DNA of 64,000 bases from assembly GCA_026397015.1 (NCBI GenBank), contig JAPLVR010000003.1, positions 186,359 through 250,358 of the forward strand, given 5' to 3'. This document shows positions 18,034 through 43,170 of this stretch, piece after piece. The stretch is from Candidatus Iainarchaeum sp. GTDB taxonomy: Archaea > Iainarchaeota > Iainarchaeia > Iainarchaeales > JAAZKV01. How positions within the stretch are numbered: position 1 is the first letter of the stretch; each line of letters begins with the position of its first letter. Under the pieces are notes generated by a model, which was given only the letters and a program-made list of their open reading frames with translations, was not told the DNA's origin and did no database searches. The position numbers were made by a program, and so were the translations under genes.

Positions 18034-18146
18034 TTTTGGGCGAAAGGCCTATCTATTAACAGTGTATATTTTAACAATAAAAAAAAGAAAAAGCAAAACC
18101 TTTAAATACAACCTCGATACACAAAATAATATTGGTTGCGATTTCG

Positions 18147-21100: not shown

Positions 21101-21422
21101 TTACCCTCTGGCAGATTGTTCGGTGAGAGGAACCATAACAGAGGCAATCAGTTCAAGCGAATTGCCGGCTGTCAGAACAGGCTGGAATTTCATACCTGTT
21201 CTTGTTGATATGATTGGAATGAAGGTGAGCGATCTTGTACCTGATTGTGGAGCCGTTAGGGCGTACTTCTACGATGCCGAAGCAGTTGGATTCGTTGACA
21301 TAACTAATACTATTTTAACTTCAAGTGATTTAGGCCAAGGATTCGGATTGTTTGCAATGAATGGCTGCACGGTTACAACACCATCGGAACCTGGCTTCCC
21401 TGCATTACCGGAGGCTGACTAA
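18147..21422 (+). CDS. giant Cys-rich secreted protein with five tandem ~120-aa repeats, a Kazal-like domain and a C-terminal beta-rich domain
   Basis: Signal peptide MRRQVLFLFMILLSATVFA. The repeat unit, CTANAYExxVCxNNKGFQxRxCN..GTGY..DW..C...PGGxC.T.TGD.FYT.R....C ... GYTGPYxGARAYCD....G....CVKTD..C, occurs five times (nt ~18480-20250, also visible as a DNA tandem). The Kazal signature is CICTDQYDPVCGTDGKTYPNECAARCA, and the module CGDDICGTGENKCNCPQDCN is also present. The tool start is TTG 18132; the first ATG is at 18147. Confidence 0.75.
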   Translation: MRRQVLFLFMILLSATVFADYCVNRTGPGYLVGCGVLGVQSGFSTCIYNTDAAMTKIKTVLNYTGPNCGVRVTCYNIGSGASAGLQVCAGYDTGCYAPGAGSCVCSPNSQFAPETCSNGFTYKTCNGNGDGYSQANCQRIGGNCSGGDIFYTSRLNTSCPPINGQCVQDVYGALNGLGYWEQSSGARAYCDTVNYHGLQVAQACVKTDGSCIPKVCTANAYETRVCTNNKGFQWRQCNGSGTGYNADWSACITIPGGNCTTTTGDQFYTLRANTTCTQSGLADGSSCSQNYTNQLNSLGYSGPYTGTRVYCESGSYAGFTAGEVCVKTDAACNPPICTANAYEAKVCANNKGFQYRKCNANGTGYEPDWQPCTALPGGDCKTITGDLFYTSRLEGKNCSQYGFAGQTGYSACVQSINRSVLDAVGYTGPYIGARAYCDDETYQGATAAEACVKTDSSCGAPCTVGQIEAQTCDNDNGYKYRTCNSTGTAWNDWTTCAPLPGTNCGAGTTKIFYKAFLNKTCAEVAQGRTNVCIQDVFQIAWNNGYRGLATGAKVYCDDYRTSSLYGAGFCVKVATECDQSVCTPGKYEARECINKRADTKMPSGYQYRQCNTTGQAWGDWSTCAPIPGINCGTGITKIFYYPKLNVTCAGVGIPTSGLCIQTVLQQAKALGYTGPETGARAYCDNYRTEDIFGAGACVRTDTGCNTGCICTDQYDPVCGTDGKTYPNECAARCAKIAVAYEGECKENCAKEGEGICNTCTPGSGPTECCTGLTKITPASKLNDDCTLKNIVGGQSSVCTHCGDDICGTGENKCNCPQDCNPIKCETSKDCLRGCIGPKATYGSCTNGQCVYTRCETDGSGIDRCAADTAPPTCDKRCDADCETNADCMVTCAQNLCAIGETNCAECPEYTCNRESCECEPVVVPVPRFNLTVHTGWNIFSIPGALSLLSNNCDSSRFRIYEYTPSSIPWFVPVSNVEIGKAYLLYYPLADCSVRGTITEAISSSELPAVRTGWNFIPVLVDMIGMKVSDLVPDCGAVRAYFYDAEAVGFVDITNTILTSSDLGQGFGLFAMNGCTVTTPSEPGFPALPEAD

Positions 21423-25827: not shown

Positions 25828-28800
25828 ATGATCAATTTGGAATTTTTCAAAAAAAATCTGATCTGTTTCGCAGTTCTATTTTTCGCTTCGATTATTCCGG
25901 GCGTTTGCGGTGCCGCAGTGCAAATTGACATAAACGGGCAGTATTATCTCGGCGGAGCGGTGACAATATCCGGAACAGTTGCTCCGGCGGCTGCAAATGA
26001 TTTGAATATTTATCTTACCAACGCGTCAAGCGGCGCGGTATTTGACAGCAACACTGTGGCTGCCGATGCAAACGGGGCGTATTCCATAACATACAATTAT
26101 TTGAGCGCTGGCGACTATAACGGGCTGGTAACAGATGCAAATTCAAGCGCGACCAATAGATTTTACCTAAAAATAACCAATTATGCAAGCATAGACATCA
26201 ATTTTGTTGGAAGTATGCCGCCTTTAAATATCGGCCAGGCATTGGTTGCGAATTTTACTTTGAGGGATTATAATAATGCAGTGGTAACAAGTGATTACAA
26301 CATCGCATTAAAACTTGTTGATTCGGATGGAACCGTTGTCAAGGATCAAAACAACTATGTTCCAAAATCAGGCGGGGCAAACAGAACTGATGATTATAAC
26401 TTCGGCGCTCTTCCCACTCCAGGAACATATACAATAATAGTGGACAACGGAGTAACTGGGTTTAATGTTCCAGTGATAGCGTACAACTTATTTGTTAATT
26501 CGTTCAATTCCAGCACCGGCGACCCCCAAAAGATATTTGCCGCGGGACAGGACGCGAATGTAAAGGTGTTCATGAGCAACACAAGCGGAACCCCGATAAC
26601 AAGCGGAACTATTTCAGGAACAATACAAGCGCCAAGTAGCGTTACACAATCCCCACTAACTTTCACCCCATACGGCGGCTATTTCATGGCGAATACGGGC
26701 GCATTAAGCACGCAAGGAGAATATACAATAAGAGTTAGTGCGAGCGCACTCGGTTACAGCCAAAACCAGGAATTAAAACTTAAAATCCAAAGCTACTCGA
26801 TGTTATTGCAGCCGAAAAAGAATGAAAGCGCCGGAAAGAAAGAGAGGATGAAGGGAGCATACAGCACTTCTTCGCAGGCGATTCTTGAACTGAGCATAAC
26901 CGACTTGAACACAAACATGGCTCTCGCAGGATTGGATTTGAATAGCGCCTGCAATAAAAACAAATTATCGCTTACTGTTTACAAGGCGGGTTCGACTGTT
27001 GGAACAAGCGTTACTTTCGATGTGAATAATGTGCCGGATAAGACATGCGATTTGAATTTTGTTACGCCTTCATCAACAGGAGAATATCGTTACAAACTGG
27101 TCGGCACGGACATGAATGTGGCAAATACTGTGCAGGATTTGGCAACATCAACCGGATTGAAAGTGCAGAATCAGATGGTGTTCTTCGACGCGGTTGATCC
27201 ATCTGCATATGCGCAGGATTCGAGCAATTCGTGGAAATTCACTTTCTACAAAGATGAAAACATCGGGTTTGTTGCAAATGTAATTGATTTGAATGTGAGT
27301 GATGATGCGGATGTTTCTGCAGTAAGTAAGGCAACAATAATGCAGAACGGCCAGCGCATAACAATAACCAACACTGTTGATAAAAATTATCTTGATTATA
27401 ACGCGGAGTCGCATGTGCTGTTAATGCTCGGAAGCGCACTCACTGATAATAATGTTTCCGCAGGGTTCGTTCCGATAGAATTCACGGTAGATGTAAATTC
27501 AAATAATGACGCGATGGATGCGAATAGCATTACTGCATTCGGCGCGTTCAAATACAAAATAATGAATATTTCTTCGATGCCGGCGGATGAAAACGGCGGC
27601 TCAAAATCAACAATGTTCGGACCGCCGGTATTCCACTCAGATACCGAAGGAGTTTACCTTCAGGTTTCGGTTACGAATGCGGGCGGAACTGCGATAAAAT
27701 ATGCCAATGTTGAGCTTTACTCTCTTAGAAATGTAGATGACTGGAATGAACTGAGCGTTGCCCCGATAAACGCGATTTCGGATAACAATAATCTTATTAC
27801 GAGCAGCGCCGGAACGGCACATCTTCACTTGGGCACACTCTCTTCAGGGATTTACTTCGGGCAGGTGAAAGTAACAAACGGAAGCACGATTGATTATGGG
27901 GATTTCTTTTTGATGGTGAAAAGTTACATTGTTAATGCACAGCCATTGACAGTGGAAAACGGCCAGTGCATGTTCATGAATTCAATCGGACAGAACAGCG
28001 ATTTCAACATGGTGATAATGGCGATGAACCCTGCGCTGGGAATGCCTGTTAATGATTATGTTCCGGATGAAAACGGCACGAAAGTGTTCCTCATGAGCAT
28101 GGGGGAAGAATTCAAGGAACCGACAATATACGATGTTACTTTGAGCAGCCCGTTTGATTTCAATTGTACGGGAATGATGGGTCCTCCGGGCGAAGTGCAG
28201 ACATTCAAAGCAATGACAGTTCACCCGAACGGCGATTCTAACTGGCAGGCGGGAAATTACAGGGTGCTTGTGAAAGGAAGTTCTGCTGAGCTTGGAGCGG
28301 AAGCCGGAGACGGCTTTTTCAGGGTGCAACCATTTAAATTCAGTTTAATGCCGTTGGCAATGACGGGCATGGGCGGCGGAGACCAAAAGATGCTTAATGC
28401 GACACCGGGTTCGGCTTTTGATTTCAATGTCATATCGGACAAGAGCATTACTCTGAGAGCAATTCTTGTTGATGAAAAAACACAGCAGGATGTTAACAGC
28501 AATATTAATTTTGTTAACAACAGCAACACAGTCAATGCAAATGAACTCACAACCGTTTCGGTTCTTATCCCGTCAAATATCCCTTTATCTGAATACCCGC
28601 TGATAGTTTTCGGTGATGACACTTCGGGCAACCAGGCGGAGCAGGATTTATTCCTAAGAATGAGCCTTTTCAATTTGGTTGTGCCAAGCGGTATTGGAAA
28701 TCAAAATCTGCAGTATCAGCAAAGCAATACGGGGGCATATGACACAAACATTTTGGATGATGCTACAAATGGAAACCTGCGCCATTCAAGCGGCCCTGGC

Positions 28801-30351
28801 GACAGCGGGCATTATTGTGATGGAAATGTTACTGTCGGCGACATCAACTATAACAGATGGATTATGGCCGGCACGGATTGGGCCAGAAATGATTTGAATC
28901 ATTTAATGCTTGTTAACACAATCGATCAAAATGTTTGGATTGATTATGACAATGACTGCAATTTTGTTCTGGATGATGCGGACAGCAACAGACATGTTGG
29001 GGATACAAACATAGGGTCAATGACTGATGGAAACGCCATGCTCGTAACGGACATCACCTCAATGGCATTAACATACATGAAAAAGCCGTTTGATTTTAAT
29101 AATTCAAGCAGGATGCAGGGAACTTTTATCGGGCAATATCCTGTTGATGAAAATATAGGCGTGCCGATAATAATTAAGAATTTGGACGGCACCACTACTG
29201 CGGATATTAACGTAACAATAAACAGGGCGATGCTACTGCCTTCCTTTGGAATGGGAATGCCACAGGAAACAACCGGGTGGACGGCGTGGCAGGGCACAAC
29301 CGACGCCGACGGCTTTGCAAGGGCAATCTTGAATGTGTCAAGACCCGGAACGTACATGCTTGAAATAAAAGCGACCAATACTGCGGGAACGTCACAAATA
29401 TTCAAGCCGTGGGAAGGAATGGTAGTTGAAGCGAAGAAGTACAAAACTGAAATGTTCCTGCAGAACCAAATAGGAGATATTACAATTGATTTCAACAATG
29501 TGCTGGCTGGGAGCGGCGTATTTATTGAAGATGACGAAAGCAGCGGTCCCGGAGATAATGGCGACGGTTTAGACCAGACATGGTACGATGCAAATTACGG
29601 GCTGTTTGATGAAAGCGCAAGAGACTTTGATTTGGATAAGGATGGCGCCAAAGACAAAAACTTTTATTTCATAAAACTGAACGATGCGTTCCACACGGCC
29701 AATTCTGGAATGGACGCAAATATTCTGGTTGACGATGACACTAATTTTTGCAACATACTGTACAGAGGGCCAGACAACAATAGAGATGATTGCGACCAAA
29801 ATGTTTTGGGCGAAGTCGGATTGAATGAAGGCTGGTTTGACAACACAAGCGGGCTCTTCCTGTGCCCGTACAGCAACGCCCAAGGTTCAATGCAAAACAC
29901 TTCATGCGGAAACAATGAAGCGGTTTATGCGATTTCAGAGAACGACACAAATGTCAATGATAATGATGCGATAATAATCAACAGAACCACCTGGAGGGCG
30001 CTTGATAATACAGGAAACAATTGGGGGTTATGGATGATAAAGGACGGCATAAACAATGCCGCAGGTTCAAGCACAAACACATGGACTATATTCAAAGATC
30101 TTCAGGGAGTAAAACTTAATTCTTCAGGCACGATGAGCGCAAAGCTTTTCAGGACAAGCGCCAGGCCACAGATGAACCAGCAAAATACGATGATTCCTAT
30201 GCCAGGAACGTATCCGGGAACGATAACCGGCGGCATAGGAAAAATTAATTACGGCAATCTGCCGGATTCAAATTATTCAATGGCGGTCGATGTAAACATC
30301 AATAATGATTTGCAAACGCAATACGAAAACTTTGAAATAAGGTCGTCATAA
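25828..30351 (+). CDS. giant secreted surface protein (1507 aa), Asn/Thr/Ser/Asp-rich, Cys-poor; S-layer or adhesin candidate
   Basis: Signal peptide FFASIIPGVCGAAVQ. No internal stops over 4.5 kb. Beta-rich, low-complexity composition. Confidence 0.75.
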   Translation: MINLEFFKKNLICFAVLFFASIIPGVCGAAVQIDINGQYYLGGAVTISGTVAPAAANDLNIYLTNASSGAVFDSNTVAADANGAYSITYNYLSAGDYNGLVTDANSSATNRFYLKITNYASIDINFVGSMPPLNIGQALVANFTLRDYNNAVVTSDYNIALKLVDSDGTVVKDQNNYVPKSGGANRTDDYNFGALPTPGTYTIIVDNGVTGFNVPVIAYNLFVNSFNSSTGDPQKIFAAGQDANVKVFMSNTSGTPITSGTISGTIQAPSSVTQSPLTFTPYGGYFMANTGALSTQGEYTIRVSASALGYSQNQELKLKIQSYSMLLQPKKNESAGKKERMKGAYSTSSQAILELSITDLNTNMALAGLDLNSACNKNKLSLTVYKAGSTVGTSVTFDVNNVPDKTCDLNFVTPSSTGEYRYKLVGTDMNVANTVQDLATSTGLKVQNQMVFFDAVDPSAYAQDSSNSWKFTFYKDENIGFVANVIDLNVSDDADVSAVSKATIMQNGQRITITNTVDKNYLDYNAESHVLLMLGSALTDNNVSAGFVPIEFTVDVNSNNDAMDANSITAFGAFKYKIMNISSMPADENGGSKSTMFGPPVFHSDTEGVYLQVSVTNAGGTAIKYANVELYSLRNVDDWNELSVAPINAISDNNNLITSSAGTAHLHLGTLSSGIYFGQVKVTNGSTIDYGDFFLMVKSYIVNAQPLTVENGQCMFMNSIGQNSDFNMVIMAMNPALGMPVNDYVPDENGTKVFLMSMGEEFKEPTIYDVTLSSPFDFNCTGMMGPPGEVQTFKAMTVHPNGDSNWQAGNYRVLVKGSSAELGAEAGDGFFRVQPFKFSLMPLAMTGMGGGDQKMLNATPGSAFDFNVISDKSITLRAILVDEKTQQDVNSNINFVNNSNTVNANELTTVSVLIPSNIPLSEYPLIVFGDDTSGNQAEQDLFLRMSLFNLVVPSGIGNQNLQYQQSNTGAYDTNILDDATNGNLRHSSGPGDSGHYCDGNVTVGDINYNRWIMAGTDWARNDLNHLMLVNTIDQNVWIDYDNDCNFVLDDADSNRHVGDTNIGSMTDGNAMLVTDITSMALTYMKKPFDFNNSSRMQGTFIGQYPVDENIGVPIIIKNLDGTTTADINVTINRAMLLPSFGMGMPQETTGWTAWQGTTDADGFARAILNVSRPGTYMLEIKATNTAGTSQIFKPWEGMVVEAKKYKTEMFLQNQIGDITIDFNNVLAGSGVFIEDDESSGPGDNGDGLDQTWYDANYGLFDESARDFDLDKDGAKDKNFYFIKLNDAFHTANSGMDANILVDDDTNFCNILYRGPDNNRDDCDQNVLGEVGLNEGWFDNTSGLFLCPYSNAQGSMQNTSCGNNEAVYAISENDTNVNDNDAIIINRTTWRALDNTGNNWGLWMIKDGINNAAGSSTNTWTIFKDLQGVKLNSSGTMSAKLFRTSARPQMNQQNTMIPMPGTYPGTITGGIGKINYGNLPDSNYSMAVDVNINNDLQTQYENFEIRSS

Positions 30352-30383: not shown

Positions 30384-31895
30384 ATGAAAAGGATTTTGGC
30401 AGTTTTAATAATGCTTGTTGCGATGGTCGGCTTTGCGGCTGCAGCGAGCGTTTCTCTCTCGCTAAATTCGCTGGAAACGATTGCGGAAGGCGAAACAGTC
30501 ACGCTGACCGCCACTGTCACCGCCGTCGGGGATTCTGTGGGCAATGTTTCACTTCAATTGGGCGACCTGTCGCCGGGCGTAAGCACTTCAGACTCATCAA
30601 CTCAATCCGTTGGGACATTGAGTTCCGGGCAAAGTTCTTCGAAGAGTTGGACAATTAGGGGGGATGTCGCAGGAACTTATTCTTTTAACGTCACGGCGTC
30701 CGGCACGGATGTAAGCGATGTGTTTCAGAATGCTTCAATGGTTGTGAACACCGCTGCATTTATCGAAATAAGCGACAAGACCTGCAGTGAAACGACGATG
30801 GATATCGGAGAAACAATAACAATGAATTTTATTGTAAAAAACACCGGTGGAAGTTCTGCAACTGTAACGACGACAATGAGCGGTTATTCAAGCAGATTTA
30901 CTCTCACATCCGGAAGCGTAACTTCAAGCGCGGAGATAACGGCCGGTTCACAAAGCAGCAAATCTTATTTGTTCACGGCGGCAAGCGCCGGAACGGCAAC
31001 AATAACCGCCACGGTAACTTCCACAGAAAATAATCCGACGGCACAAACTTGCGCCGTAACAATAAACGCCGCTTTAGATACGAGCGACGACGATTCAGAA
31101 ACTGTCAGCGGAGTCCCCGCAGGGGATATAATACTCAGCAGGGTGCTTGATCAAAATCCAAGTGTGGAAGAAATAACTGCAATCTTAAGTTCTGCCGGTT
31201 TAACGCAGGAATCGATTGACAGAGCAGTAAGCCTGCTTGAAAAAATCGGCGTAAAAAAAGAAGTAATTGTTCGTAAAAGAACGTTGACTAACGGCACCAC
31301 AGCTTACACTACCACAATAACATTCACAATAAAAAATAAAGACGGCACAAATCTTTTGAAAAATGTCAAAGTAATTTTGGAAATTCCGAAAACGGTTGCG
31401 GAAAATGCTTCCGAACTTGTGATTCCTTCAAATGAAAATTACACCATAATAAAGGCCGACCCAATACTTGAATTTGAAATTGCGGAAATAGCGCCAAACG
31501 GCACTGGAAAAGTTGACATCGACATAAATAAGCAGATAAGCGGCGCGTTGGCGGATTCAATATTACAAGCAGTAGTTGCCGATTTCGAAGAGGCCGCTGA
31601 TTTGTGCGTCGGAAAAAACTGTGATGATGAAAATCCCTGTACGACTGATGCATGCAGTGGGGGCAATTGCTCAAATACCAGCGTCACTAATGGAACTGTG
31701 TGCGGCGAGGGAAAAAGTTGTAAGGCAGGGGCATGTGTTTTAATCGCTGCTGAAGAAAATCAAGAAGGAGAGCAAACTCCTGAGCAGAAGGCGGCACAGG
31801 ACCAGACCAATTTACTACTCATAATCGGCGCAGTAGTTGCACTAATACTTATCATCGCAATAATTGGGGCAATTGTACTCAAAAAAAGAAAGTAA
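30384..31895 (+). CDS. surface protein with CARDB-like Ig repeats, Cys-knot and C-terminal TM anchor
   Basis: Signal peptide MKRILAVLIMLVAMVGFAAAASV and Ser/Thr-rich Ig-like segments. Cys cluster CVGKNCDDENPCTTDACSGGNCSNTSVTNGTVCGEGKSCKAGACV. C-terminal anchor LLLIIGAVVALILIIAIIGAIVLKKRK. Starts 32 nt after the giant gene. Confidence 0.7.
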   Translation: MKRILAVLIMLVAMVGFAAAASVSLSLNSLETIAEGETVTLTATVTAVGDSVGNVSLQLGDLSPGVSTSDSSTQSVGTLSSGQSSSKSWTIRGDVAGTYSFNVTASGTDVSDVFQNASMVVNTAAFIEISDKTCSETTMDIGETITMNFIVKNTGGSSATVTTTMSGYSSRFTLTSGSVTSSAEITAGSQSSKSYLFTAASAGTATITATVTSTENNPTAQTCAVTINAALDTSDDDSETVSGVPAGDIILSRVLDQNPSVEEITAILSSAGLTQESIDRAVSLLEKIGVKKEVIVRKRTLTNGTTAYTTTITFTIKNKDGTNLLKNVKVILEIPKTVAENASELVIPSNENYTIIKADPILEFEIAEIAPNGTGKVDIDINKQISGALADSILQAVVADFEEAADLCVGKNCDDENPCTTDACSGGNCSNTSVTNGTVCGEGKSCKAGACVLIAAEENQEGEQTPEQKAAQDQTNLLLIIGAVVALILIIAIIGAIVLKKRK

Positions 31896-31946: not shown

Positions 31947-32531
31947 TTATTCTTGTTCCTCAGTTGCCAATATAGCTCCATACCTGAAAACTCTCATTCC
32001 AAGTCTGACCCATTCGTCAGGGGCAAGGCCTGCTTTGAGACAGAGGTGCGAAAGAAATTCCTCTTTTGTTTCAATTTCTTCCCAGACACTTGGAAGGAAT
32101 GTCGCGCTGCGGAAGCCTTTCCGGATTATCAAACCGTCTTTTCCTGCAACAATTTTTTTCAGCAAATCGGCGGGAGAAGAAAATTTCATTTCAACAGCAT
32201 CTGTGAGAACTGAAACCTCGATTTTCAAATCGGAAAGTTCATTTTTTGAGAGAGGGTTGAAACGCGAATCCTGAAATGCGGCGTTAACTGCATTTTCTAT
32301 AATGTCAAGGTAAAGGGGCTGCATCGCGTCAAGGTGGCCGATACACCCTCTCAGCTCGCTCCCATTTGTCAAGGTAACAAAGCAGGCCTTTTCTTCCAAC
32401 AAGTTTTTTGGAACCACTTTTTCGGAAAGTTTTAGAAGCGCGCCGCCGCTAAAAAAATATTCTATTGATTTGCGCGCAAGCGAAACACAGAACTTTTTTT
32501 CTTTTTCATTCAAGGAAAATTTTGAACCCAT
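31947..32531 (-). CDS. AMMECR1-domain protein (AmmeMemoRadiSam system protein A)
   Basis: AMMECR1 core LRGCIGHLDAMQPLYLDIIENAVNAAFQDSRF. Confidence 0.85.
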   Translation of the reverse strand: MGSKFSLNEKEKKFCVSLARKSIEYFFSGGALLKLSEKVVPKNLLEEKACFVTLTNGSELRGCIGHLDAMQPLYLDIIENAVNAAFQDSRFNPLSKNELSDLKIEVSVLTDAVEMKFSSPADLLKKIVAGKDGLIIRKGFRSATFLPSVWEEIETKEEFLSHLCLKAGLAPDEWVRLGMRVFRYGAILATEEQE

Positions 32532-32593
32532 TATTTCACCCTCAACACAAAATTACCACGCAAAATTATTTATTATTGCCCCTTACTTCCCCC

Positions 32594-33352
32594 CTATTCC
32601 ACAAAAACAATCGAAGCGTAGCCGACCACTTTGCTTTTGTCTCCGGCGGTATCGCCCGAATTTTTGTACTCAACCAAAACCGGTTTCCACTTAAATTTTT
32701 TTGCAATAATCATCAATGCGGCGATTCCGGTTTTGCCGCAGGCGTCGCCCGAAAGCAGAAATTTTTTCAAATCGAGAGAAATAATCGCAGCGATTGTTGC
32801 GTTATCAATTCTGTTTGCGTCGTCATAACGAAGATAATGACTTAAGTCGGAGCTTGCAACCAGCACGGAATCTTTTGAAACAAGCGGCTTAATTTTTTCA
32901 GCCAGTTCTTCGGCGGAAATTTCGCCGTAAATTAATGGCACGAGAACAAATTGTTTGAAAATTTTCTGGAGAAAAGGCACTTGAACTTCTAAGGAATGCT
33001 CCACATCGCCCCGAATTGCATCAATGCCCGGCGCCTTTTCTACTTTCACTAATCCTAATGGTGTTTCCCAATTCTGGTCAAACGAATATGCACCTTCAAA
33101 ATACGCCTGATGAGAAGGACCGAACAGCACAACTTTCTTTGCTCTTGACCTTTTTAGCAAAACATATGCGGGGGAGGCAACGGATGCGGAATACACATAA
33201 CCTGCATGGGGAACTATTGCGCCGCGGATTTTTCCTGAAATTTTTTCAGAAATTGTTTTGCTTTCAAAAAGCAATTTGTCAATAAGTTCTGAAAGTTCGT
33301 CCTTATCGGCGGGATAAAATTGGCCGGCATAAACCGGCTCTCTTATATTCAC
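32594..33352 (-). CDS. Memo-like protein (AmmeMemoRadiSam system protein B)
   Basis: N-terminus IREPVYAGQFYPADKDEL and GAIVPHAGYVYS, typical of MEMO1/extradiol-dioxygenase class III subunit B. Confidence 0.85.
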   Translation of the reverse strand: MNIREPVYAGQFYPADKDELSELIDKLLFESKTISEKISGKIRGAIVPHAGYVYSASVASPAYVLLKRSRAKKVVLFGPSHQAYFEGAYSFDQNWETPLGLVKVEKAPGIDAIRGDVEHSLEVQVPFLQKIFKQFVLVPLIYGEISAEELAEKIKPLVSKDSVLVASSDLSHYLRYDDANRIDNATIAAIISLDLKKFLLSGDACGKTGIAALMIIAKKFKWKPVLVEYKNSGDTAGDKSKVVGYASIVFVE

Positions 33353-33384
33353 TCACACGCCCCCTGTTTTTTCTTTTTCAACTT

Positions 33385-34431
33385 TTATTCAAAAACACCT
33401 TCTATTTTTTCGCCGCAATCCGCACATCTTGCGCTCCTCGAAAGGCCCCCCGCTTTTTCTAGCCCGCCCATGGCGACGCCGTAAAGGCTTCTCTCAATAA
33501 TTTTCGCACCGCAATTCGGGCAATAGGTGCTTTCCAAATCCGAATCAGAAAGATTGCCGCCGTAAACAAATCTCAGCCCTGCATCCTTCCCTATTTTCAT
33601 CGCCTCTTTTATCTGGTTCGCAGAAGTTTTTGGAATTCCCGCCATCTTGTGGCACGGATGAAAAGCGGAAACGTGCCACGGAATGCTTTTATCAACGGAA
33701 GAGATAAAATCCGCCAACTGCTTCAAATTATCATGCGAAGTGTTTTTACCCGGAATTAGAAGCGTAGTAATTTCGGTCCACGTTTTGTTTTTATGGAAGG
33801 ATTTTATTGTTTCGAGAACTCCTTCAAGTTTTGCGCCGCAAATTTTTTTATAAAATTCGTCATCGAAACTTTTCAAATCAATATTAATCGCGTCAAGTTT
33901 TCGCCGCAATGATTTTATTTGTTCTTCGCTTTCGTATCCGTTGCTTACAAAAACGGTTCCGAAATTTTTTTTTCTTGCAAGGGCGATTGCGTCAAGGCAA
34001 TATTCGATTGAAATGGCGGATTCGTTGTATGTGAATGCGACGCTTTTTGCGCCGCTTTCTTCCGTAAGGGAAATGAATTTTTCCGGGCTCACTTCCTGCA
34101 TTCCCGGCAAAAGTTTTTCAACCTGTTCGCCTTTCACGGCGGAAATATCATAATTTTGGCAGAAGGCGCAGGAAAAGTTGCAGCCGAAGAAGCCGATGCT
34201 CATTATTTCAGTTCCGGGCTTGTAGTGGAACAGCGGCTTTTTTTCCATCGGATCAAGATGGATGCTGCAAGGTTTTGCATAAGTAATGAGAAAAAGCTTG
34301 CCGCCAATATTTTTGCGCACGCCGCAGATACCGAAGCGGCTTTCGGCTATTGTGCAGCCGTGCCTGCACGCGCTGCATTTCACCGCGTTCTCCGGCTTTT
34401 CAAGCCGCTTATAAAATGTGCATTCCTTCAT
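33385..34431 (-). CDS. AmmeMemoRadiSam system radical SAM enzyme
   Basis: Radical-SAM cluster FGCNFSCAFCQN plus an N-terminal Cys cluster CSACRHGC...GICG. Adjacent and co-directional with the AMMECR1 and Memo genes. Confidence 0.85.
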   Translation of the reverse strand: MKECTFYKRLEKPENAVKCSACRHGCTIAESRFGICGVRKNIGGKLFLITYAKPCSIHLDPMEKKPLFHYKPGTEIMSIGFFGCNFSCAFCQNYDISAVKGEQVEKLLPGMQEVSPEKFISLTEESGAKSVAFTYNESAISIEYCLDAIALARKKNFGTVFVSNGYESEEQIKSLRRKLDAINIDLKSFDDEFYKKICGAKLEGVLETIKSFHKNKTWTEITTLLIPGKNTSHDNLKQLADFISSVDKSIPWHVSAFHPCHKMAGIPKTSANQIKEAMKIGKDAGLRFVYGGNLSDSDLESTYCPNCGAKIIERSLYGVAMGGLEKAGGLSRSARCADCGEKIEGVFE

Positions 34432-35591: not shown

Positions 35592-35753
35592 AAATCCCAA
35601 AAAGTTAATTTTTTTGCCCAAAAACAAAGAAGTGCTACATAACCGCACCGGCTTTTGAACAATCACTTTACTTTCGGTCTTTTACCGTGTGAAAAAAAAT
35701 TACAAAGTAAACAAAAAAGCAAGCTTAAATACACAAAAGACATTATTTTGTGG

Positions 35754-38663
35754 ATGAAAAAAGCCGTCTTAATCGCGGGCATTCTTTTGTCGCTAATCAT
35801 ACTTTCTGGGGCAGCGCTCGCGGAGGATTGTGTTTGTACCGATGTATACGAGCCCGTATGCGGAGTCGACAAAAAAACATATGGAAATGAGTGCAACGCA
35901 AACTGCGCCGGAATTGAAATTGCTTATAAGACAGGATGCTCTCACACCTGCGAAGATATCTCCTGCACACTTACCTGCCCATATGGAGTTAAAGCTGATG
36001 AATACGGCTGCAAGCTCTGCGAATGCAACGAAATTAGCTGCGCCGGAGAAGGAATGGGAATCGCGGTAATACCAAATCCGCCGAGCTGCTGTGAGGGACT
36101 CAATCAAATACCCCCGAAAAGCGGGGACCTCTTAGGCATTTCCGGAATATGCACTGCAAAATGCGGCAACGGAAACTGCGACACAGGAACAGAAACTAAT
36201 TATAATTGCCCCGAAGACTGCCAGCCAGTGCCATGCAAAAACGATGGAGAAGACATTCCGGTTATTGAGAATCCTCCTGTATGCTGTGAAGGATTAAGGG
36301 CTGAACCAATATATGACAGGAAAGGAGTTAGTGCGATATGCAAAAAGCCGACCCCTTGCATCGGCACCATCGACGAACAAGGGTGCAAAGTAGTGAAATG
36401 CGATGATGGCAGGTATGAAAGAAATTGTCCAACCACCCCGACACCGGTAACATGCGAAAAGCAGGAAGATCCTGCAACTAAATGTGTAATAAAAAAATGC
36501 AGCGATGGATACATTGATAGATGGTGCCCGACACAGCCCACTGAATGCAAAACTTATATTGATGAAAAGGGCTGCAAAGTAACTTCCTGCGCAGATGGGA
36601 CCAGACGAGATTGTCCGACGCCCGCACAAGAGGAATGCACGAAATATGTTAGGGAAGACGGCTGCGTAGTGAAGAAGTGCAAAGAGGGTGCCGTAATGAT
36701 TGATTGCCCGACTAGTACAGTACTTCCTGCAAGTGCGGTACCCACAAGCTGCATCGAAGTGAGAGATGAAAGCGGAAATGTTGTAAGCAGGCAATGCCAA
36801 GCGGTTGCAGTAAATGAAGTGCCAATTTTCACAACCGCCTGCCCAACAGATGAAGACAATAAGAGAAAAATAGAAGCGTGCAGGCTCTCAAACGGAAATC
36901 CATTTACCGAAGCATCCTCAAATGGGTGCAAAGTAATCAATTGCCGGATGGCAACATCAAGTACCACCAGTGGCGACGCAACGCCGGCCGTTGCAACAAC
37001 CTGTCCGGGGCAGCCAATTGAGGAAATTAGAAAAATAAAGGATGACTGCAAGCAAAATGCCGGCGAAATAATTGTGAAGTTTGATGGTGGCGGATGCGAG
37101 AAATATTACTGCATAAAAAACTGGGAGCAGGACTGCAGAAAGGAAAAGGACATTCCTGCTGAAAAGAAGGATTCCTGCGAAAAGCAGGGCGGGCAATTTA
37201 TATTAAAAACAAACGAAAAGGGCTGCATTACATTCATTGACTGCATCACGACCGGACAGAGTAGCTATGCTTCATCGGAAATAAAAAAGACGCCCGATGT
37301 TGCAGAGCTCACTGATTTGGCTTTTAAACTGGAAAGCCTGAAAATAGAATTTGAGGGCCTTGGAAAGAAAGCAGACGGAATTGCAGCATATTACGAAGAA
37401 AACGGAAATGAGGCGGATGCGAACAGGTTCAAGAGGGTTGCAGGCATGCTCTACTCCGCAAAGGACAAAATCGATGAAATCAAGAATATGATACGGGAAA
37501 ACCTTGATAACTTCGATGAAAGCATGGCAAGGGAAGTAAAAGATTCCATAAGGTACATAAAGGAAATACTGCTGAAAGACATTCTTTACATTATGCTCGG
37601 TGGGGAGGGAAAAGCCGGGGAAACCTGCAAAAACATTTCCTGCTTTGAGAGGGCATTAAGGGCTTGCCTCCCGACAACGATAACAGTAAGCGAAGGCGGA
37701 AAAGAAATGGAAATAAATATTCTCGGGGTGGAGGACAACCTTTGCAAATTAGAGGCAAAGACGGGCGATGAAAGCGGAACATACGAAATGATCTGCAAAA
37801 TCCCCGACTTTTCTATGATAGGCTTGGGGCAATTCAAGCCGGAAAAATACTGCGAGGGAACGCTGCTTGATTATATGGCAGGAAGTATAAGCCCAAAAAC
37901 GTCAACAAGCAACCAGATACAAGCCCCATTAGAAGGACCAGAGCTGATAATAGAGTCTGTGAAATGCGTATTTAATAATAACGCCAGTGGAACGCAGAAA
38001 TGCTACGACAGCACAGGGGCATACGGGTGCGCAAATGAGCCTAAAAGAGACAAAAGAGACTACTCAACAATGTGCACGCCCAAAACGGAACAGATTAAAG
38101 TCGGGGAAAGGATCGCAGTGAACGGCGGCGGGGCATATGAAGGCAAAACACTGACAATAAACTTAACGGATACAACCGCCACAAACACCGACGAAACGAC
38201 TATAAAAAGCGCATGGGCATTAAAAAACGGCGATGAAATGCTGAAAACCGCCGAAACCATAAGGGGCAACACAAGCTCACAGGACGATCTCAGCTTGATA
38301 TTCCGCGAATACATTGCCACAGGCACCTATATCCGCATCACGGGCATAGTGCCAACAGGGGATAAATATGCCGTAACGCTGGTAACCACCTGCGAAACGT
38401 CCGATTACACTTCGTGCACTGCTGAAGTAAAGGGGGCCAAAGGCACAAAGCTTACTTGGAAAAGCACATGCGGAGGATATGCATACACAACAGTGGACGG
38501 GGAAAACGAATATGCAGAATTCAAATGCGGATTCTGCGACAGCTTAGACGAAGCGGGCTGTGAAAAAACAGAAGGATGCACCACCGTCCGTATTTCTGCA
38601 CCACCAACAGGAGCAACAAGCGATACTGGTAAATTTGTTAGATGCGAGGCGATAGTTCAATGA
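35754..38663 (+). CDS. Cys-rich secreted protein with N-terminal Kazal-like domain, ~30-aa GC.V..C.DG.....CPT repeats, coiled-coil and C-terminal Cys domain
   Basis: Signal peptide MKKAVLIAGILLSLIILSGAALA. Kazal signature CVCTDVYEPVCGVDKKTYGNECNANCA. At least six repeats of the form EQGCKVVKCDDGRYERNCPT. The tool start at 35655 adds 33 aa upstream of the signal peptide. Confidence 0.7.
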   Translation: MKKAVLIAGILLSLIILSGAALAEDCVCTDVYEPVCGVDKKTYGNECNANCAGIEIAYKTGCSHTCEDISCTLTCPYGVKADEYGCKLCECNEISCAGEGMGIAVIPNPPSCCEGLNQIPPKSGDLLGISGICTAKCGNGNCDTGTETNYNCPEDCQPVPCKNDGEDIPVIENPPVCCEGLRAEPIYDRKGVSAICKKPTPCIGTIDEQGCKVVKCDDGRYERNCPTTPTPVTCEKQEDPATKCVIKKCSDGYIDRWCPTQPTECKTYIDEKGCKVTSCADGTRRDCPTPAQEECTKYVREDGCVVKKCKEGAVMIDCPTSTVLPASAVPTSCIEVRDESGNVVSRQCQAVAVNEVPIFTTACPTDEDNKRKIEACRLSNGNPFTEASSNGCKVINCRMATSSTTSGDATPAVATTCPGQPIEEIRKIKDDCKQNAGEIIVKFDGGGCEKYYCIKNWEQDCRKEKDIPAEKKDSCEKQGGQFILKTNEKGCITFIDCITTGQSSYASSEIKKTPDVAELTDLAFKLESLKIEFEGLGKKADGIAAYYEENGNEADANRFKRVAGMLYSAKDKIDEIKNMIRENLDNFDESMAREVKDSIRYIKEILLKDILYIMLGGEGKAGETCKNISCFERALRACLPTTITVSEGGKEMEINILGVEDNLCKLEAKTGDESGTYEMICKIPDFSMIGLGQFKPEKYCEGTLLDYMAGSISPKTSTSNQIQAPLEGPELIIESVKCVFNNNASGTQKCYDSTGAYGCANEPKRDKRDYSTMCTPKTEQIKVGERIAVNGGGAYEGKTLTINLTDTTATNTDETTIKSAWALKNGDEMLKTAETIRGNTSSQDDLSLIFREYIATGTYIRITGIVPTGDKYAVTLVTTCETSDYTSCTAEVKGAKGTKLTWKSTCGGYAYTTVDGENEYAEFKCGFCDSLDEAGCEKTEGCTTVRISAPPTGATSDTGKFVRCEAIVQ

Positions 38664-39812: not shown

Positions 39813-40943
39813 TTAGGGGATTATTTCGGCACAATTATATTTTAGGAATTCGAGCTGCTTCTTTTTTATTTTTCCGGAGGCGAGCAGCTTTTTTATTTCC
39901 GGAGAGATTCTTTCCATTTCACGGAGCAGATGTTTTACCGTTGCGCAAAGCTCATTTCTCCCTCTTTCCAGCCAGGGCTTTGTGATGTTTGAGTAAAGGC
40001 AGCGGCCGCCGCAGAGCCCGAAATCGGCACAGGAAACGCAGGGCTCTTTCACGGTTAATTTGAAAGGCAAATCGGTTGGATTCGAAGTCCGGATATCGCC
40101 GAGGTAGTAATCATTCATGCCGGACATTATGGGGCAGGCAGAAATCTTTCCGTTCGGGAGGATTGTGAAATTCCCTATTCCTGAGCCGCATCTCAAATAA
40201 TACTTTTTTCCAAAAATAAGTGAATTAATTATTCCCATAAACGGGTAAAGGCGCAGGACTTTTCCTTTCTTCAACTCTTTCAGCCAAAAATTCGCAAGCT
40301 TTGTTATTTGCTTGTTGTAATTCTTCGACCATTCCGGAAAGTTCCTTTTTTTATAGTCGTGCCACATGTTCGCATCAAGCTGCCAGTGGATTGAAACGAA
40401 AGGAAATTCCTTGTTTTTGAGCAGATGCATTAAGTCCTTGTAAAAATCGGTCGGCTCTTCGACGCACATCCGAGCGATTATTTCGCCTTTGAAGCCGTTC
40501 TTCTTCAGCAACTTTAAATTTGAAATTATTTTTTCATATGTTCCTTCGCCCCTGTTTCTGTCGGTCGTTTCCTTTGTGCCGTCAATGGAAACAAGTACTG
40601 TGTGAAATTTGTTTGAATACTTTGTGGGAAGCTTGTCGAAAAGAATTCCGTTGGTTTGAATCAGAAAATTTCTTGCTTTTGTAGAATCCATTATTTGCTT
40701 TATCGAATCGATTTCAAGCAGCGGCTCGCCGCCGTAAAAAATTATTGAAACTCCTTCCTTGTCCTTTGAAAGAAAATTGTTGAGCTCTTGCATTGAGTAT
40801 TGGATTTTTTGGGGAACTTGCTCGAATTTCAAATCGATTTCGGGTTCGTCAAAGGCTTTTTCGCAGCAGTATTTGCAGCACAAATTACATTCCGGAGTCG
40901 TTATTATGTGATAAATCATAAAAAAAACCACCATTTCAATCAA
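39813..40943 (-). CDS. radical SAM enzyme with C-terminal SPASM domain
   Basis: N-terminal CxxxCxxC (PECNLCCKYCC), GGEP motif (IFYGGEPLL), and C-terminal SPASM Cys array CVSCADFGLCGGRCLYSN. It lies tail-to-tail with the NSUN gene with zero gap, and is last in a three-gene minus-strand operon. Confidence 0.8.
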   Translation of the reverse strand: MIEMVVFFMIYHIITTPECNLCCKYCCEKAFDEPEIDLKFEQVPQKIQYSMQELNNFLSKDKEGVSIIFYGGEPLLEIDSIKQIMDSTKARNFLIQTNGILFDKLPTKYSNKFHTVLVSIDGTKETTDRNRGEGTYEKIISNLKLLKKNGFKGEIIARMCVEEPTDFYKDLMHLLKNKEFPFVSIHWQLDANMWHDYKKRNFPEWSKNYNKQITKLANFWLKELKKGKVLRLYPFMGIINSLIFGKKYYLRCGSGIGNFTILPNGKISACPIMSGMNDYYLGDIRTSNPTDLPFKLTVKEPCVSCADFGLCGGRCLYSNITKPWLERGRNELCATVKHLLREMERISPEIKKLLASGKIKKKQLEFLKYNCAEIIP

Positions 40944-40965
40944 ATGAAAAATCTGAAATTAAAAG

Positions 40966-41838
40966 CTAAAATGCCGTTTCAAAGCTTAATCCTTTGGTAT
41001 ATCTATTCAAGCCAACCATTTTTTCTGGAATTTTTTCCCTGTCGGCGAATTTCTTGTAATCTAAAACTTTTTTCTTCCGAAGGAAGAGCGGAAGCTTTGA
41101 GGCGACGCCGTTGCCGCCGATGCAGCCGCCTTTGCAGAACAAAATGTCATAAAAAATTTTGTCGGAATGCGTTTCAAATAGTTTTAGCAAATCTGCGCAA
41201 CCATCGCGGGAAACAGTCTCCCCCTCTTTCAAAATATCTTTTGAATGCAGTGTTTTACCGAGTCCCCCGGAGAGCGGGTAAATTTTAGTGTAATCGTTGT
41301 AGAAGCGGTCGAACAGATGCGAGCGACCGGACTTTTTTGGCTTTTCTTTTTCAATAATTCCTTTCATTTCCCTAAAAGTAAGCGCTGCTGAAATCAACCT
41401 GCCATTTTTTGCTTCAATTTTTTTCGCGGAGCAGGGGGCAAGAAAAACGATTTTGTGCTTCGGATATTCCTTATGAAGTATCTTTGCCATTGAAATCACT
41501 GGAGAATCAAAAGGCAAAAGGAATTTTTTTAATTCAGGGTGACGGTTTTTCACCATTTCAACGGAAGTAGGGCAGACAGAGGAAATGAATTTCTCGTAGC
41601 CTTTCTTTCCTTTATTTTCTTTTATGTATTTGTGATAGTGTTCATTTACTATTTTTGCGCCGAAAGTGAGCTCGGTTATCCTGTCGAAGCCGAGCCCTTT
41701 CATCAAGGGAACAAAAGAAAGATAATCGAAGTCGACAACAAAAGAGGGCGCCGCCATCAAGCAAACTTTTTGCTTTTCATTCAAAAGCGACAGAACTTTT
41801 TTCTGGTCAGTGGAATAACTAAAATTTAGATCGACCAT
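40966..41838 (-). CDS. ultraminimal [FeFe]-hydrogenase-like protein (H-cluster domain only; HydA/Nar1-like)
   Basis: All three H-cluster motifs are present. L1 is SSVCPTSVE (TSCCPxW-like, with the proton-relay Cys replaced by Val). L2 is APCSAKKIE (MPCxxKxxE). L3 is DILFCKGGCIGGNG (ExMACxGGCxxGGG). 290 aa, with no accessory FeS domains. Confidence 0.6.
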   Translation of the reverse strand: MVDLNFSYSTDQKKVLSLLNEKQKVCLMAAPSFVVDFDYLSFVPLMKGLGFDRITELTFGAKIVNEHYHKYIKENKGKKGYEKFISSVCPTSVEMVKNRHPELKKFLLPFDSPVISMAKILHKEYPKHKIVFLAPCSAKKIEAKNGRLISAALTFREMKGIIEKEKPKKSGRSHLFDRFYNDYTKIYPLSGGLGKTLHSKDILKEGETVSRDGCADLLKLFETHSDKIFYDILFCKGGCIGGNGVASKLPLFLRKKKVLDYKKFADREKIPEKMVGLNRYTKGLSFETAF

Positions 41839-41864: not shown

Positions 41865-43091
41865 TTATTTGTTGGGTTTGCGCTTCAGAACGAAAACCTT
41901 GTCATTCGGCCTGCATCTGCCGGAAACTTTTATTCCAACGAATTCGCCTTGCCTAGCTTTTTTTATTTTCTTATGGTTGATTTCCATTGAGTCGAGTTTT
42001 TGCTCGATAAAAGTAGTTACGCCTTCAATAATTAATTTTTCACCGGCAGAGAGCGGAGCAAAGAGTTTTACTTCTGCCACGCCCGGCTTAACAAAATAAT
42101 GGGTTATGATGCCTACGTTAAATCTCTTCTGTGTTTGGACTGAACCCTGTCCTTTAGCTAAATCTTTTTCATCAGGAACGGAAAAAAAGAAACCATTTGA
42201 GAAGCCGCGGTTGTAAACTTTTTCAAGTTCTGAGTTCCAACGGGCAATTTTTTCTTTTGAAAAAGTGCCTTCAAAAACGGAGTCGATTGCCTGACGGTAA
42301 CAGCGCGTTGCAACTGCAATGTAATCGGAAGGCTTTGTCCGCCCTTCAATTTTAAGCGAATCAACCCCCACCCAGATTATTTTGTCCAAAAAATCTATTG
42401 TTTTCAGGTCTTTGGCGGAAAGGATGGTGCTTCCGTCCAAAAAAATCTCCTTCTTTTCGAAATTCGGGAAGTCGCCGTCCAAAAAGTAGGCGCGGCGGCA
42501 GGGCTGGAGGCATTGTCCGCGGTTCGCGCTTCTTCCAAACAGTTCATGGCTAAGGAAGCAGCGGCCGGAAACGGAAATGCACATGGCGCCATGAATGAAA
42601 CACTCAACTTCAATCCCAAGCTTTTTTGCAATTTTCTTTATTTTTGAAATCTGTTTCAGGCTGAGTTCGCGGGCGAGAATTATTCTTTTTATTCCTAGGG
42701 ATGAGTATTGCTTCAATGCTTCCGAGTTGGAAACGCTGGCCTGCGTGCTGAGGAACGGTTTTAGTTTGAATTTTTTTGCGAGCGAAAGGACGGAAAAATC
42801 CCACAAAATTACGCCGTCAACTTTTGCCCTTTTTGCTTCCTTTAATATTTTTTCCACTTGCTTTATTTCCCCGTCAAAAATTATTGTATTCAGCGCAAGG
42901 TAGCCTTTCATGTCGCTCGCGTGAAGGGAAGCCATTAATTTCTTCATGTCGCTGGCGGAGAAGTTGGTGCCGAGGTCGCGCATATTGAAGCCGCGGACGC
43001 CGAAGTAAACCGCATCGGCGCCGTTCGTGGCTGCGGCTATCGCCGAGGCAAAGTCGCCGACGCCCACGCACAATTCGGGCTTTTTCGACAT
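41865..43091 (-). CDS. peptidase U32 family protein (RlhA/TrhP/UbiU-type O2-independent hydroxylase fold)
   Basis: U32 signature EVECFIHGAMCISVSGRCFLSH. The start was set at the internal Met (MSKKPELCVGV). The tool start is at 43127. Confidence 0.75.
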   Translation of the reverse strand: MSKKPELCVGVGDFASAIAAATNGADAVYFGVRGFNMRDLGTNFSASDMKKLMASLHASDMKGYLALNTIIFDGEIKQVEKILKEAKRAKVDGVILWDFSVLSLAKKFKLKPFLSTQASVSNSEALKQYSSLGIKRIILARELSLKQISKIKKIAKKLGIEVECFIHGAMCISVSGRCFLSHELFGRSANRGQCLQPCRRAYFLDGDFPNFEKKEIFLDGSTILSAKDLKTIDFLDKIIWVGVDSLKIEGRTKPSDYIAVATRCYRQAIDSVFEGTFSKEKIARWNSELEKVYNRGFSNGFFFSVPDEKDLAKGQGSVQTQKRFNVGIITHYFVKPGVAEVKLFAPLSAGEKLIIEGVTTFIEQKLDSMEINHKKIKKARQGEFVGIKVSGRCRPNDKVFVLKRKPNK

Positions 43092-43170
43092 TGGAATCTT
43101 TTTTGCAGTTGAGTGATTACGGCGCATGATAGCATAAATTAAATAAAGAAACGCTTATAATTTTCTGCAT

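Follow-up and report, generated by a model that had tools for sequence, protein, structure and literature searches.

A probable group E ultraminimal [FeFe] hydrogenase with valine in place of the proton-relay cysteine, encoded by an Iainarchaeota/Diapherotrites archaeon

Group E [FeFe] hydrogenases were defined by Greening et al. (Cell 2024; PMC11216029) as proteins that consist of the H-cluster domain (H-domain) only, with an average of 286 residues, and that are encoded by DPANN archaea (Iainarchaeota, Micrarchaeota, and Nanoarchaeota). The original report comprised 30 sequences, and in many DPANN genomes the group E enzyme is the only hydrogenase (PMC11216029). The group is reported to be sister to sensory group C. 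After maturation with synthetic [2Fe]adt, the group E enzyme of Ca. Forterrea multitransposorum (Fm) has one [4Fe-4S] cluster and displays H-cluster states by FTIR (PMC11216029). Fm produces H2 and, in electrochemical tests, catalyzes the reaction in both directions, with H+ reduction favored; all of this activity was recorded on artificially matured enzyme, and the authors warn that rates from lysates should not be read as specific activities (PMC11216029). A further group E enzyme, Na, comes from a Nanoarchaeota MAG (PMC11216029). The closed Fm genome encodes no HydEFG maturases, and of 130 archaeal genomes with [FeFe] hydrogenases, just 5 had a full maturase set (PMC11216029). In groups C and D, Ala is the usual residue at the position of C299 of the group A enzyme CpI, and introducing Cys there lowers activity (PMC10407848, PMC11803613). 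Group D enzymes use an alternative proton pathway, in which the relay glutamate is E252 of TamHydS (PMC10407848).

We analyzed a 64-kb stretch of DNA (the window) with archaeal gene content, including RNA polymerase genes with a split Rpb2, ribosomal protein S7, aEF-2, and EF-1alpha. It contains an intact open reading frame (ORF), here called hydA, that runs from ATG to stop and encodes 290 amino acids. The features of hydA and of the two genes that flank it are as follows.

41865..43127, minus strand: peptidase-U32-family gene (TrhP/UbiU-like; PF01136, E=9e-76), 26 nt upstream of hydA and co-directional with it
40966..41838, minus strand: hydA, predicted group E ultraminimal [FeFe] hydrogenase, 290 aa, H-cluster domain only (ORF; PF02906; AlphaFold2 and Foldseek)
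41743..41751, minus strand: A30-P31-S32, equivalent to CpI A230-P231-S232 (profile alignment to TmHydA)
41566..41583, minus strand: L1 motif SSVCPT, aa 86-91, in which V88 corresponds to CpI C299 and C89 to CpI C300, a [4Fe-4S]H ligand (HMMER alignments)
41413..41439, minus strand: L2 motif APCSAKKIE, aa 134-142, in which A134 corresponds to M353, C136 to C355, K139 to K358, and E142 to E361
41260..41280, minus strand: Y187-P-L-S-G-G-L193, aa 187-193, equivalent to CpI F417...V423 (profile alignment to CpI)
Directly before the L3 motif, minus strand: D231 (equivalent to E495) and L233 (equivalent to M497) (alignments to CpI)
41113..41139, minus strand: L3 motif FCKGGCIGG, aa 234-242, in which C235 corresponds to C499 and C239 to C503, the bridging Cys
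39813..40943, minus strand: TIGR04084 radical SAM/SPASM gene (323.6 bits against a cutoff of 225), directly downstream of hydA and co-directional with it

PF02906 (Fe_hyd_lg_C) is the single Pfam domain of the HydA protein. It matches with 103.3 bits (cutoff, 22.1; E=2.2e-29) and covers profile positions 2 to 244 of 245, so the motif match is far beyond chance. Residues were mapped in CpI numbering by phmmer and profile (HMMER) alignments against PDB chains. The L1 and L3 motifs were confirmed base by base in the DNA, and all three motifs are present in the ORF translation. The protein contains six Cys residues in total: the four cluster ligands (C89, C136, C235, and C239) plus C26 and C214, which form no Fe-S motif. 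Neither the sequence nor the Pfam search revealed an N-terminal ferredoxin-like domain. An AlphaFold2 model based on a 62-sequence alignment (pLDDT, 93.8; pTM, 0.91) has the HydA H-domain fold, and when it was queried against the PDB with Foldseek, all 50 listed matches were HydA H-domains (query-normalised TM, 0.75 to 0.80; E, about 1e-14). Three plus-strand ORFs inside hydA (40800..41288, 41409..41570, and 41539..41829) are unsupported, lying opposite a strongly conserved coding frame.

The protein is an intact H-domain-only [FeFe]-hydrogenase homolog with all H-cluster ligand positions. An initial annotation of this DNA had proposed an ultraminimal [FeFe] hydrogenase resembling the smallest known from archaea, with the four Cys ligands and the Lys kept and no N-terminal ferredoxin-like domains, and the HMMER alignments and Pfam search agree with it on each of these points. 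It had also made its reading depend on an alignment to CpI, in which the Cys residues indeed fall on H-cluster ligand positions, and had suggested a structure prediction, which returned the HydA fold described above.

A search with the HydA protein returned 837 homologs at E<1e-5. The best 120 of these are nearly all 280 to 330 aa long with PF02906 only, and their named sources are metagenome-assembled genomes (MAGs) of Diapherotrites, Iainarchaeum, Nanoarchaeota, and Pacearchaeota. A scan of GTDB with one genome per species identified at least 227 species-level loci related to hydA; among the best 80 of the 227, every record that names a lineage is DPANN, except for one short contig binned as Fusobacteriaceae. 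Orthologs from Ca. Forterrea sp. (L006; P0036 cluster) share 58% identity with the window protein. In a neighbor-joining tree, a rough distance analysis that is not to be over-read, the window protein and the Forterrea proteins grouped together (67/100 bootstraps) within a clade of 259- to 352-aa proteins, apart from multidomain relatives of 495 to 598 aa and with CpI as the outgroup. Support for the short-protein clade as a whole was low (18/100), in a tree that covered Forterrea-genus orthologs in place of Fm and Na themselves, the multidomain relatives, and CpI. The apparent second-best representative (P0123; 4,122 aa) turned out to consist of group A algal-type HydA repeats joined in tandem and was set aside.

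With its 290 aa, single Pfam domain, and absence of accessory Fe-S motifs, the window protein has the size and architecture of group E, and an identical protein in a Candidatus Diapherotrites MAG places it in a DPANN host. That protein (MCX6800906.1; NTZ73_01845), encoded on a 347-kb contig, is 100% identical and is annotated at NCBI as 'hypothetical protein'. Against the group A model TIGR02512, the window protein scores 44.6 bits, far below the cutoff of 405.95. The evidence as a whole is best explained by hydA being the gene for a group E ultraminimal [FeFe] hydrogenase in an Iainarchaeota/Diapherotrites archaeon, a reading that we consider probable. On this reading, the protein is a typical unannotated member of an already described group and not a new kind of hydrogenase.

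The initial annotation was correct that Val occupies the C299 position (SSVCPT, with V88 aligned to CpI C299). It had further taken the substitution as a sign of impaired catalysis that favored a sensory or non-canonical role, a view that the family does not support. Conservation was counted in one combined alignment of 196 family sequences. Position 88 is Val in 143 of them, Thr in 21, Pro in 19, and Ala in 13, and it is Cys in none. The L1 motif reads [SA][ST]VCP in 95 of the 120 closest homologs, with Thr, Pro, or Ala in the remainder and again no Cys. The 80 best GTDB loci show the same pattern at L1, and the motif of a Forterrea sp. ortholog is SSVCPAT. The nearest multidomain relatives have Ala, Pro, Ser, or Thr at the C299 position and Gly or Ser at the M353 position. 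Because Cys is absent from all 196 sequences, the pocket is conserved, and Cys has also been lost in the multidomain relatives and in groups C and D, Val88 is best read as a state that this clade inherited and that selection has kept, not as damage to the protein. By itself, Val88 says nothing about a sensory role or a dead enzyme. Loss of C299 need not abolish catalysis, since groups C and D carry Ala at this position and group D uses an alternative pathway. Judging from the genus-level orthologs and the complete lack of Cys across the family, the experimentally active Fm probably has Val as well.

C299 is not the only element of the group A proton pathway to be replaced in the window protein: E279 is H67, S319 is L108, E282 is K70, and R286 is E74. 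Across the 196 sequences, the S319 equivalent is always Leu, Ile, Met, Ala, or Val, the E279 and R286 equivalents are variable, and Lys predominates at the E282 equivalent. Where group D has its relay glutamate (TamHydS E252, which corresponds to CpI V423), the window protein has L193, and 195 of 196 family members have Leu. Since the group A and group D relays are both absent, protons would have to arrive by a clade-specific route.

The residues around the cluster present the opposite picture. The four ligands C89, C136, C235, and C239 are each Cys in 196/196 sequences, and K139 (K358), E142 (E361), and S112-P113 (S323-P324) are equally invariant. A30-P31 equivalents are present in 194/196, the other two being alignment gaps, and S32 has an equivalent in 177/196; in CpI, the corresponding A230-P231-S232 segment belongs to the pocket around the proximal CN ligand. 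The F417 equivalent, Y187, is Tyr in 193/196, and the E495 equivalent, D231, is Asp in 194/196. The M497 equivalent, L233, is Leu in 161/196, and position 134, the M353 equivalent, is Ser in 134 sequences and Ala in 61. At the CpI Q325 position, the window protein has Val, found in 13/196, where Met is typical of the family. The combination of two absent familiar proton pathways with an invariant [2Fe] pocket in some 200 sequences sharpens the question of how protons are delivered in the smallest known hydrogenases.

The loci of relatives offer evidence on physiological role. Of 48 Nanoarchaeota-type loci, 15 have genes for 2-oxoacid:ferredoxin oxidoreductase (OFOR) subunits upstream of hydA on the same strand, and Pfam confirmed the two subunits (POR and POR_N in one; TPP_enzyme_C and PFO_beta_C in the other). 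In one locus (L072), the OFOR beta-subunit gene ends within the start of hydA, with an overlap of 8 bp, and in another (L060), an acyl-CoA-synthetase-like gene overlaps the hydA start. Small ORFs between OFOR and hydA in two loci (L046 and L069) were considered and discarded, being neither ferredoxins nor conserved. In the Iainarchaeota-type lineage, neither OFOR nor ferredoxin genes were found beside hydA, and the 64-kb window contains no ferredoxin motif. The OFOR-hydA arrangement of the Nanoarchaeota relatives fits ferredoxin-coupled fermentative H2 release, and such operons provide genomic support for this role of group E.

Profile and motif searches detected no HydE, HydF, or HydG in the 64-kb window. 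The three radical SAM proteins that it encodes belong to TIGR04084, AmmeMemoRadiSam (TIGR04337), and TYW1 (TIGR03972), and no P-loop GTPases other than EF-1alpha and EF-2 occur in it. Motif and cluster screening likewise found no HydE, HydF, or HydG within about 10 kb of hydA in 81 related loci. The absence of HydEFG counts against the hydrogenase reading, because it leaves in vivo assembly of the [2Fe] subsite without its maturases. This absence, shared by most archaeal genomes that encode these proteins, agrees with a different reading, in which the protein never receives [2Fe] in vivo and instead serves as a [4Fe-4S] (or [4Fe-4S] plus [2Fe-2S]) redox or cluster carrier, perhaps for the U32 or radical SAM enzymes. 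There is a precedent in Nar1, which retains the H-domain without [2Fe]H (PMC12621388), and in Iainarchaeota hydA sits between Fe-S-dependent RNA-modification-type genes (U32, radical SAM, and RsmB). Such a carrier would not explain why the [2Fe]-specific residues (equivalents of K358, P231/S232, S323/P324, and F417) are 99 to 100% conserved in a fast-evolving clade, and Fm binds [2Fe]adt and turns over. The OFOR operons of relatives fit H2 evolution. The window protein also lacks the N-terminal 4-Cys site and C-terminal Trp of Nar1: C26 is the only Cys in its N-terminus, and its C-terminal end is ...SFETAF. The initial annotation had named the lack of HydEFG together with a Nar1/NARF-like nature as the outcome that would count against a hydrogenase. 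As to the first part, no HydEFG was found in the window or near hydA in the 81 loci, and most such genomes are reported to have none; the Nar1 architecture is not present. We regard a carrier role as unlikely.

A second alternative is that the protein is a sensory or regulatory hydrogenase, in which a Cys-less site with slow turnover would report H2 levels instead of carrying flux. The reported sister relationship of group E to sensory group C, the residues of the closest multidomain relatives at C299 and M353, and a group A proton pathway that is missing entirely, as it also is in TmHydS and TamHydS, would all accord with sensing. The window protein, however, is an H-domain with no PAS or other signaling domain, C-terminal cluster, or other output domain, and no kinase, phosphatase, or transcription factor gene is conserved beside hydA in the window and related loci. 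Fm, unlike TmHydS, is biased towards H2 evolution. Nanoarchaeota relatives are co-oriented or operonic with OFOR, and a protein that is the sole hydrogenase in many DPANN genomes has nothing obvious to regulate. The sensory role put forward in the initial annotation thus finds no support in domain content or gene neighborhood, and we think it very unlikely.

Gene order around hydA was compared across loci. Downstream of hydA and the TIGR04084 radical SAM gene in the window lies a convergent RsmB/F-type methyltransferase gene. The radical SAM gene adjoins hydA in 29 of 33 Iainarchaeota-type loci and in 2 of 48 Nanoarchaeota-type loci; the U32 gene is near hydA in 26 of the 33 and in none of the Nanoarchaeota-type loci, and RsmB is near it in 25 of the 33. 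In two Pacearchaeota loci (L046 and L069), the radical SAM gene adjoins hydA in inverted orientation, with no other Iainarchaeota-type neighbor. The conserved block around hydA exceeds 15 kb and includes RNA polymerase genes, DUF2203, RsmB, a Kazal-like Cys-rich secreted protein, and the AmmeMemoRadiSam trio, and the extended gene order of the window is common to Forterrea-genus loci. Because this conserved order spans more than 15 kb of unrelated genes, the adjacency of the radical SAM and U32 genes to hydA reflects lineage synteny and is not specific to the hydrogenase.

TIGR04084 proteins with 48 to 54% identity occur in Aenigmarchaeota, Bathyarchaeia, and Nanoarchaeia, and in four other archaeal lineages the TIGR04084 gene has unrelated neighbors, with no hydrogenase within 5 kb. 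The family takes its name from Archaeoglobus AF0577. A role for the TIGR04084 enzyme in maturation is weakened because this radical SAM protein is widespread and usually unlinked to hydA. As the main reading, an alternative maturase was rejected on two grounds, namely, the 46 of 48 Nanoarchaeota-type loci without the radical SAM gene and the four lineages without a nearby hydrogenase. The U32 protein was rejected as a HydA partner since it is syntenic only within Iainarchaeota, inside the block of more than 15 kb. The joint proposition that group E is matured by a HydEFG-independent route, takes up protons along a path with no relation to the group A or group D pathway, and relies on the adjacent TIGR04084 enzyme in maturation is, taken together, highly improbable. 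That hydA, the TIGR04084 radical SAM/SPASM gene, and the U32 gene form a functional module for alternative H-cluster maturation or a shared pathway, as their common direction, tight spacing (gaps of 26 nt and roughly 22 to 46 nt), and recurrent or inverted radical SAM adjacency might suggest, is very unlikely given a conserved order that runs on through unrelated housekeeping genes, the near absence of the radical SAM gene from Nanoarchaeota-type loci, and the wide occurrence of TIGR04084 in archaea from which no group E hydrogenase has been reported.

For the favored reading, a group E hydrogenase, a mechanism can be proposed by analogy with the relative Fm, according to which the window protein would bind the [2Fe] subsite and turn over H2. 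C239 would bridge the [4Fe-4S] cubane to the [2Fe] subsite, as suggested by family knowledge and by Fm. Because there are no accessory clusters, electrons would enter directly from reduced ferredoxin, which probably donates them at the exposed cubane as in algal M1 enzymes. H2 would then be released as a fermentative electron sink, with net H2 evolution. Val88 cannot relay protons; the most likely route to the azadithiolate amine may be water in an open, loop-shortened pocket, and the invariant Asp231 and/or Tyr187 could help proton delivery, both suggestions being speculative and drawn from the alignment.

The window protein alone adds little, since it probably just extends a family known since 2024 by one unannotated sequence. 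The 30 sequences of the original report compare with at least 227 species-level group E-type loci in present public data. The remaining interest lies in family-wide proton delivery and HydEFG-independent maturation and not in the window locus itself, and group E enzymes are minimal scaffolds of interest for the engineering of H2 catalysts.

Among known systems, Nar1/NARF/CIAO3 proteins resemble the window protein as H-domain homologs in organisms without HydEFG, but they are eukaryotic, carry an additional 4-Cys [4Fe-4S] site in the N-terminal part, and have a Trp at the C-terminus (PMC12621388). The group A enzymes CpI and HydA1 share its H-cluster ligands, Lys, and fold, and Chlamydomonas HydA1 (M1) also lacks accessory clusters. 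In contrast, the TSCCP Cys relay, E279, S319, E282, and R286, and M353 and M497 of group A are not conserved in the group E family, HydA1 is about 170 aa longer than the window protein, and identity to group A structures is about 19 to 20% in structure alignments. The group C and D enzymes (TmHydS and TamHydS) rank next after the short forms in profile score and have in common with the window protein a non-Cys residue at C299, the lack of the group A pathway, a small residue at M353, and Leu at M497. They differ in their length of 500 to 750 aa, in carrying Fe-S clusters at the N-terminus and a cluster/PAS region at the C-terminus, all absent from the window protein, and in a Glu at the E495 position where it has Asp; group D also has the E252 relay where it has Leu. 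The closest described systems are the group E enzymes Fm and Na (PMC11216029). The window protein comes from a different species, is known from sequence alone, and has Val for Met at the CpI Q325 position. Fm and Na are likewise H-domain-only proteins of about 286 aa from DPANN hosts, with non-canonical proton-transfer residues, a single [4Fe-4S] and [2Fe] site, shortened loops, and no HydEFG in the genome (PMC11216029). Forterrea-genus orthologs carry the same SSVCP, [SA]PCxAKK, and LFCxGGCIGG motifs as the window protein.

The gene for the group E ultraminimal [FeFe] hydrogenase (hydA) adjoins a TIGR04084 (AF0577-type) radical SAM/SPASM gene in 29 of the 33 loci with an Iainarchaeota-type neighborhood, and also in two loci from Pacearchaeota (L046 and L069), where the arrangement is inverted. 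In other archaea, the neighbors of the TIGR04084 gene are unrelated. The three copies discussed here are as follows:

Window 39813..40943, (-) strand: TIGR04084 gene adjoining hydA
L046:10906-12003, inverted relative to the Iainarchaeota-type arrangement: TIGR04084 gene adjoining hydA, Pacearchaeota
L069:10825-11958, inverted relative to the Iainarchaeota-type arrangement: TIGR04084 gene adjoining hydA, Pacearchaeota

A second linkage was found among the Nanoarchaeota-type loci, 15 of 48 of which (L072, L046, L069, L060, and 11 more) carry genes for 2-oxoacid:ferredoxin oxidoreductase (OFOR) on the same strand as hydA and no more than 3 kb upstream of it. In L072 the OFOR and hydA genes overlap by 8 bp, and in L060 the start of hydA is overlapped by an acyl-CoA-synthetase-like gene. 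The portion consulted of the main text of the paper that defined group E (Greening et al., Cell 2024, PMC11216029) makes no mention of an OFOR-hydA arrangement.

L072:7688-10840, co-directional: OFOR (alpha/gamma and beta subunits) and hydA

Within hydA itself, the position equivalent to CpI Q325 is Met in 181 of the 196 members of the family alignment and Val in only 13, among them the window protein (V114). The V114 difference is minor and specific to a subclade; it lies in the pocket, beside the invariant Ser-Pro. Three ORFs of 53 to 162 aa lie antisense to hydA; they have no independent support and the hydA frame opposite them is strongly conserved, and we therefore rejected them as spurious.

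Window 41497..41499, (-) strand: V114 codon of hydA
Window 40800..41288, (+) strand: antisense ORF
Window 41409..41570, (+) strand: antisense ORF
Window 41539..41829, (+) strand: antisense ORF

Elsewhere in the window, all three genes of the AmmeMemoRadiSam trio are present (31947..34431, (-) strand). Synteny of the trio extends to the Forterrea-like locus L082. A 1,002-aa Cys-rich protein with Kazal-like repeats is probably secreted; it matched no Pfam family with confidence, its L082 ortholog gave a faint match to Kazal_2, and syntenic counterparts, just 30 to 40% identical, occur in 15 or more Iainarchaeota loci. Four large ORFs with weak family matches (MG2, Y_Y_Y, BatD/CARDB) or none may encode surface or adhesion proteins of the DPANN host.

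Window 31947..32531, (-) strand: AMMECR1
Window 32594..33352, (-) strand: Memo
Window 33385..34431, (-) strand: AmmeMemoRadiSam radical SAM enzyme (TIGR04337, 325 bits)
Window 35655..38663, (+) strand: 1,002-aa Cys-rich protein
Window 11733..13982, (+) strand: 749-aa ORF
Window 18132..21422, (+) strand: 1,096-aa ORF
Window 25828..30351, (+) strand: 1,507-aa ORF
Window 30384..31895, (+) strand: 503-aa ORF

P0123, a predicted protein of 4,122 aa with six identical ∼444-aa repeats of group A algal-type HydA and a seventh, divergent copy (L1, TSCCASW), ranked high solely because its score was a sum over the repeats, and is probably an assembly or gene-calling artifact. The group E hydA of L062 lies on a 2.6-kb contig (JAFGUR010000262.1) assigned to a MAG labeled "Fusobacteriaceae bacterium"; the contig is probably of DPANN origin and mis-binned, and the gene not a bacterial member of group E. 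Representatives P0124 to P0146 represent further lineages of H-domain-only proteins (259 to 297 aa), with GPC in place of SPC/APC as the L2 motif and A, P, N, or V at the C299 position. The metagenomic diversity of ultraminimal forms appears to exceed the 30 group E sequences first described.
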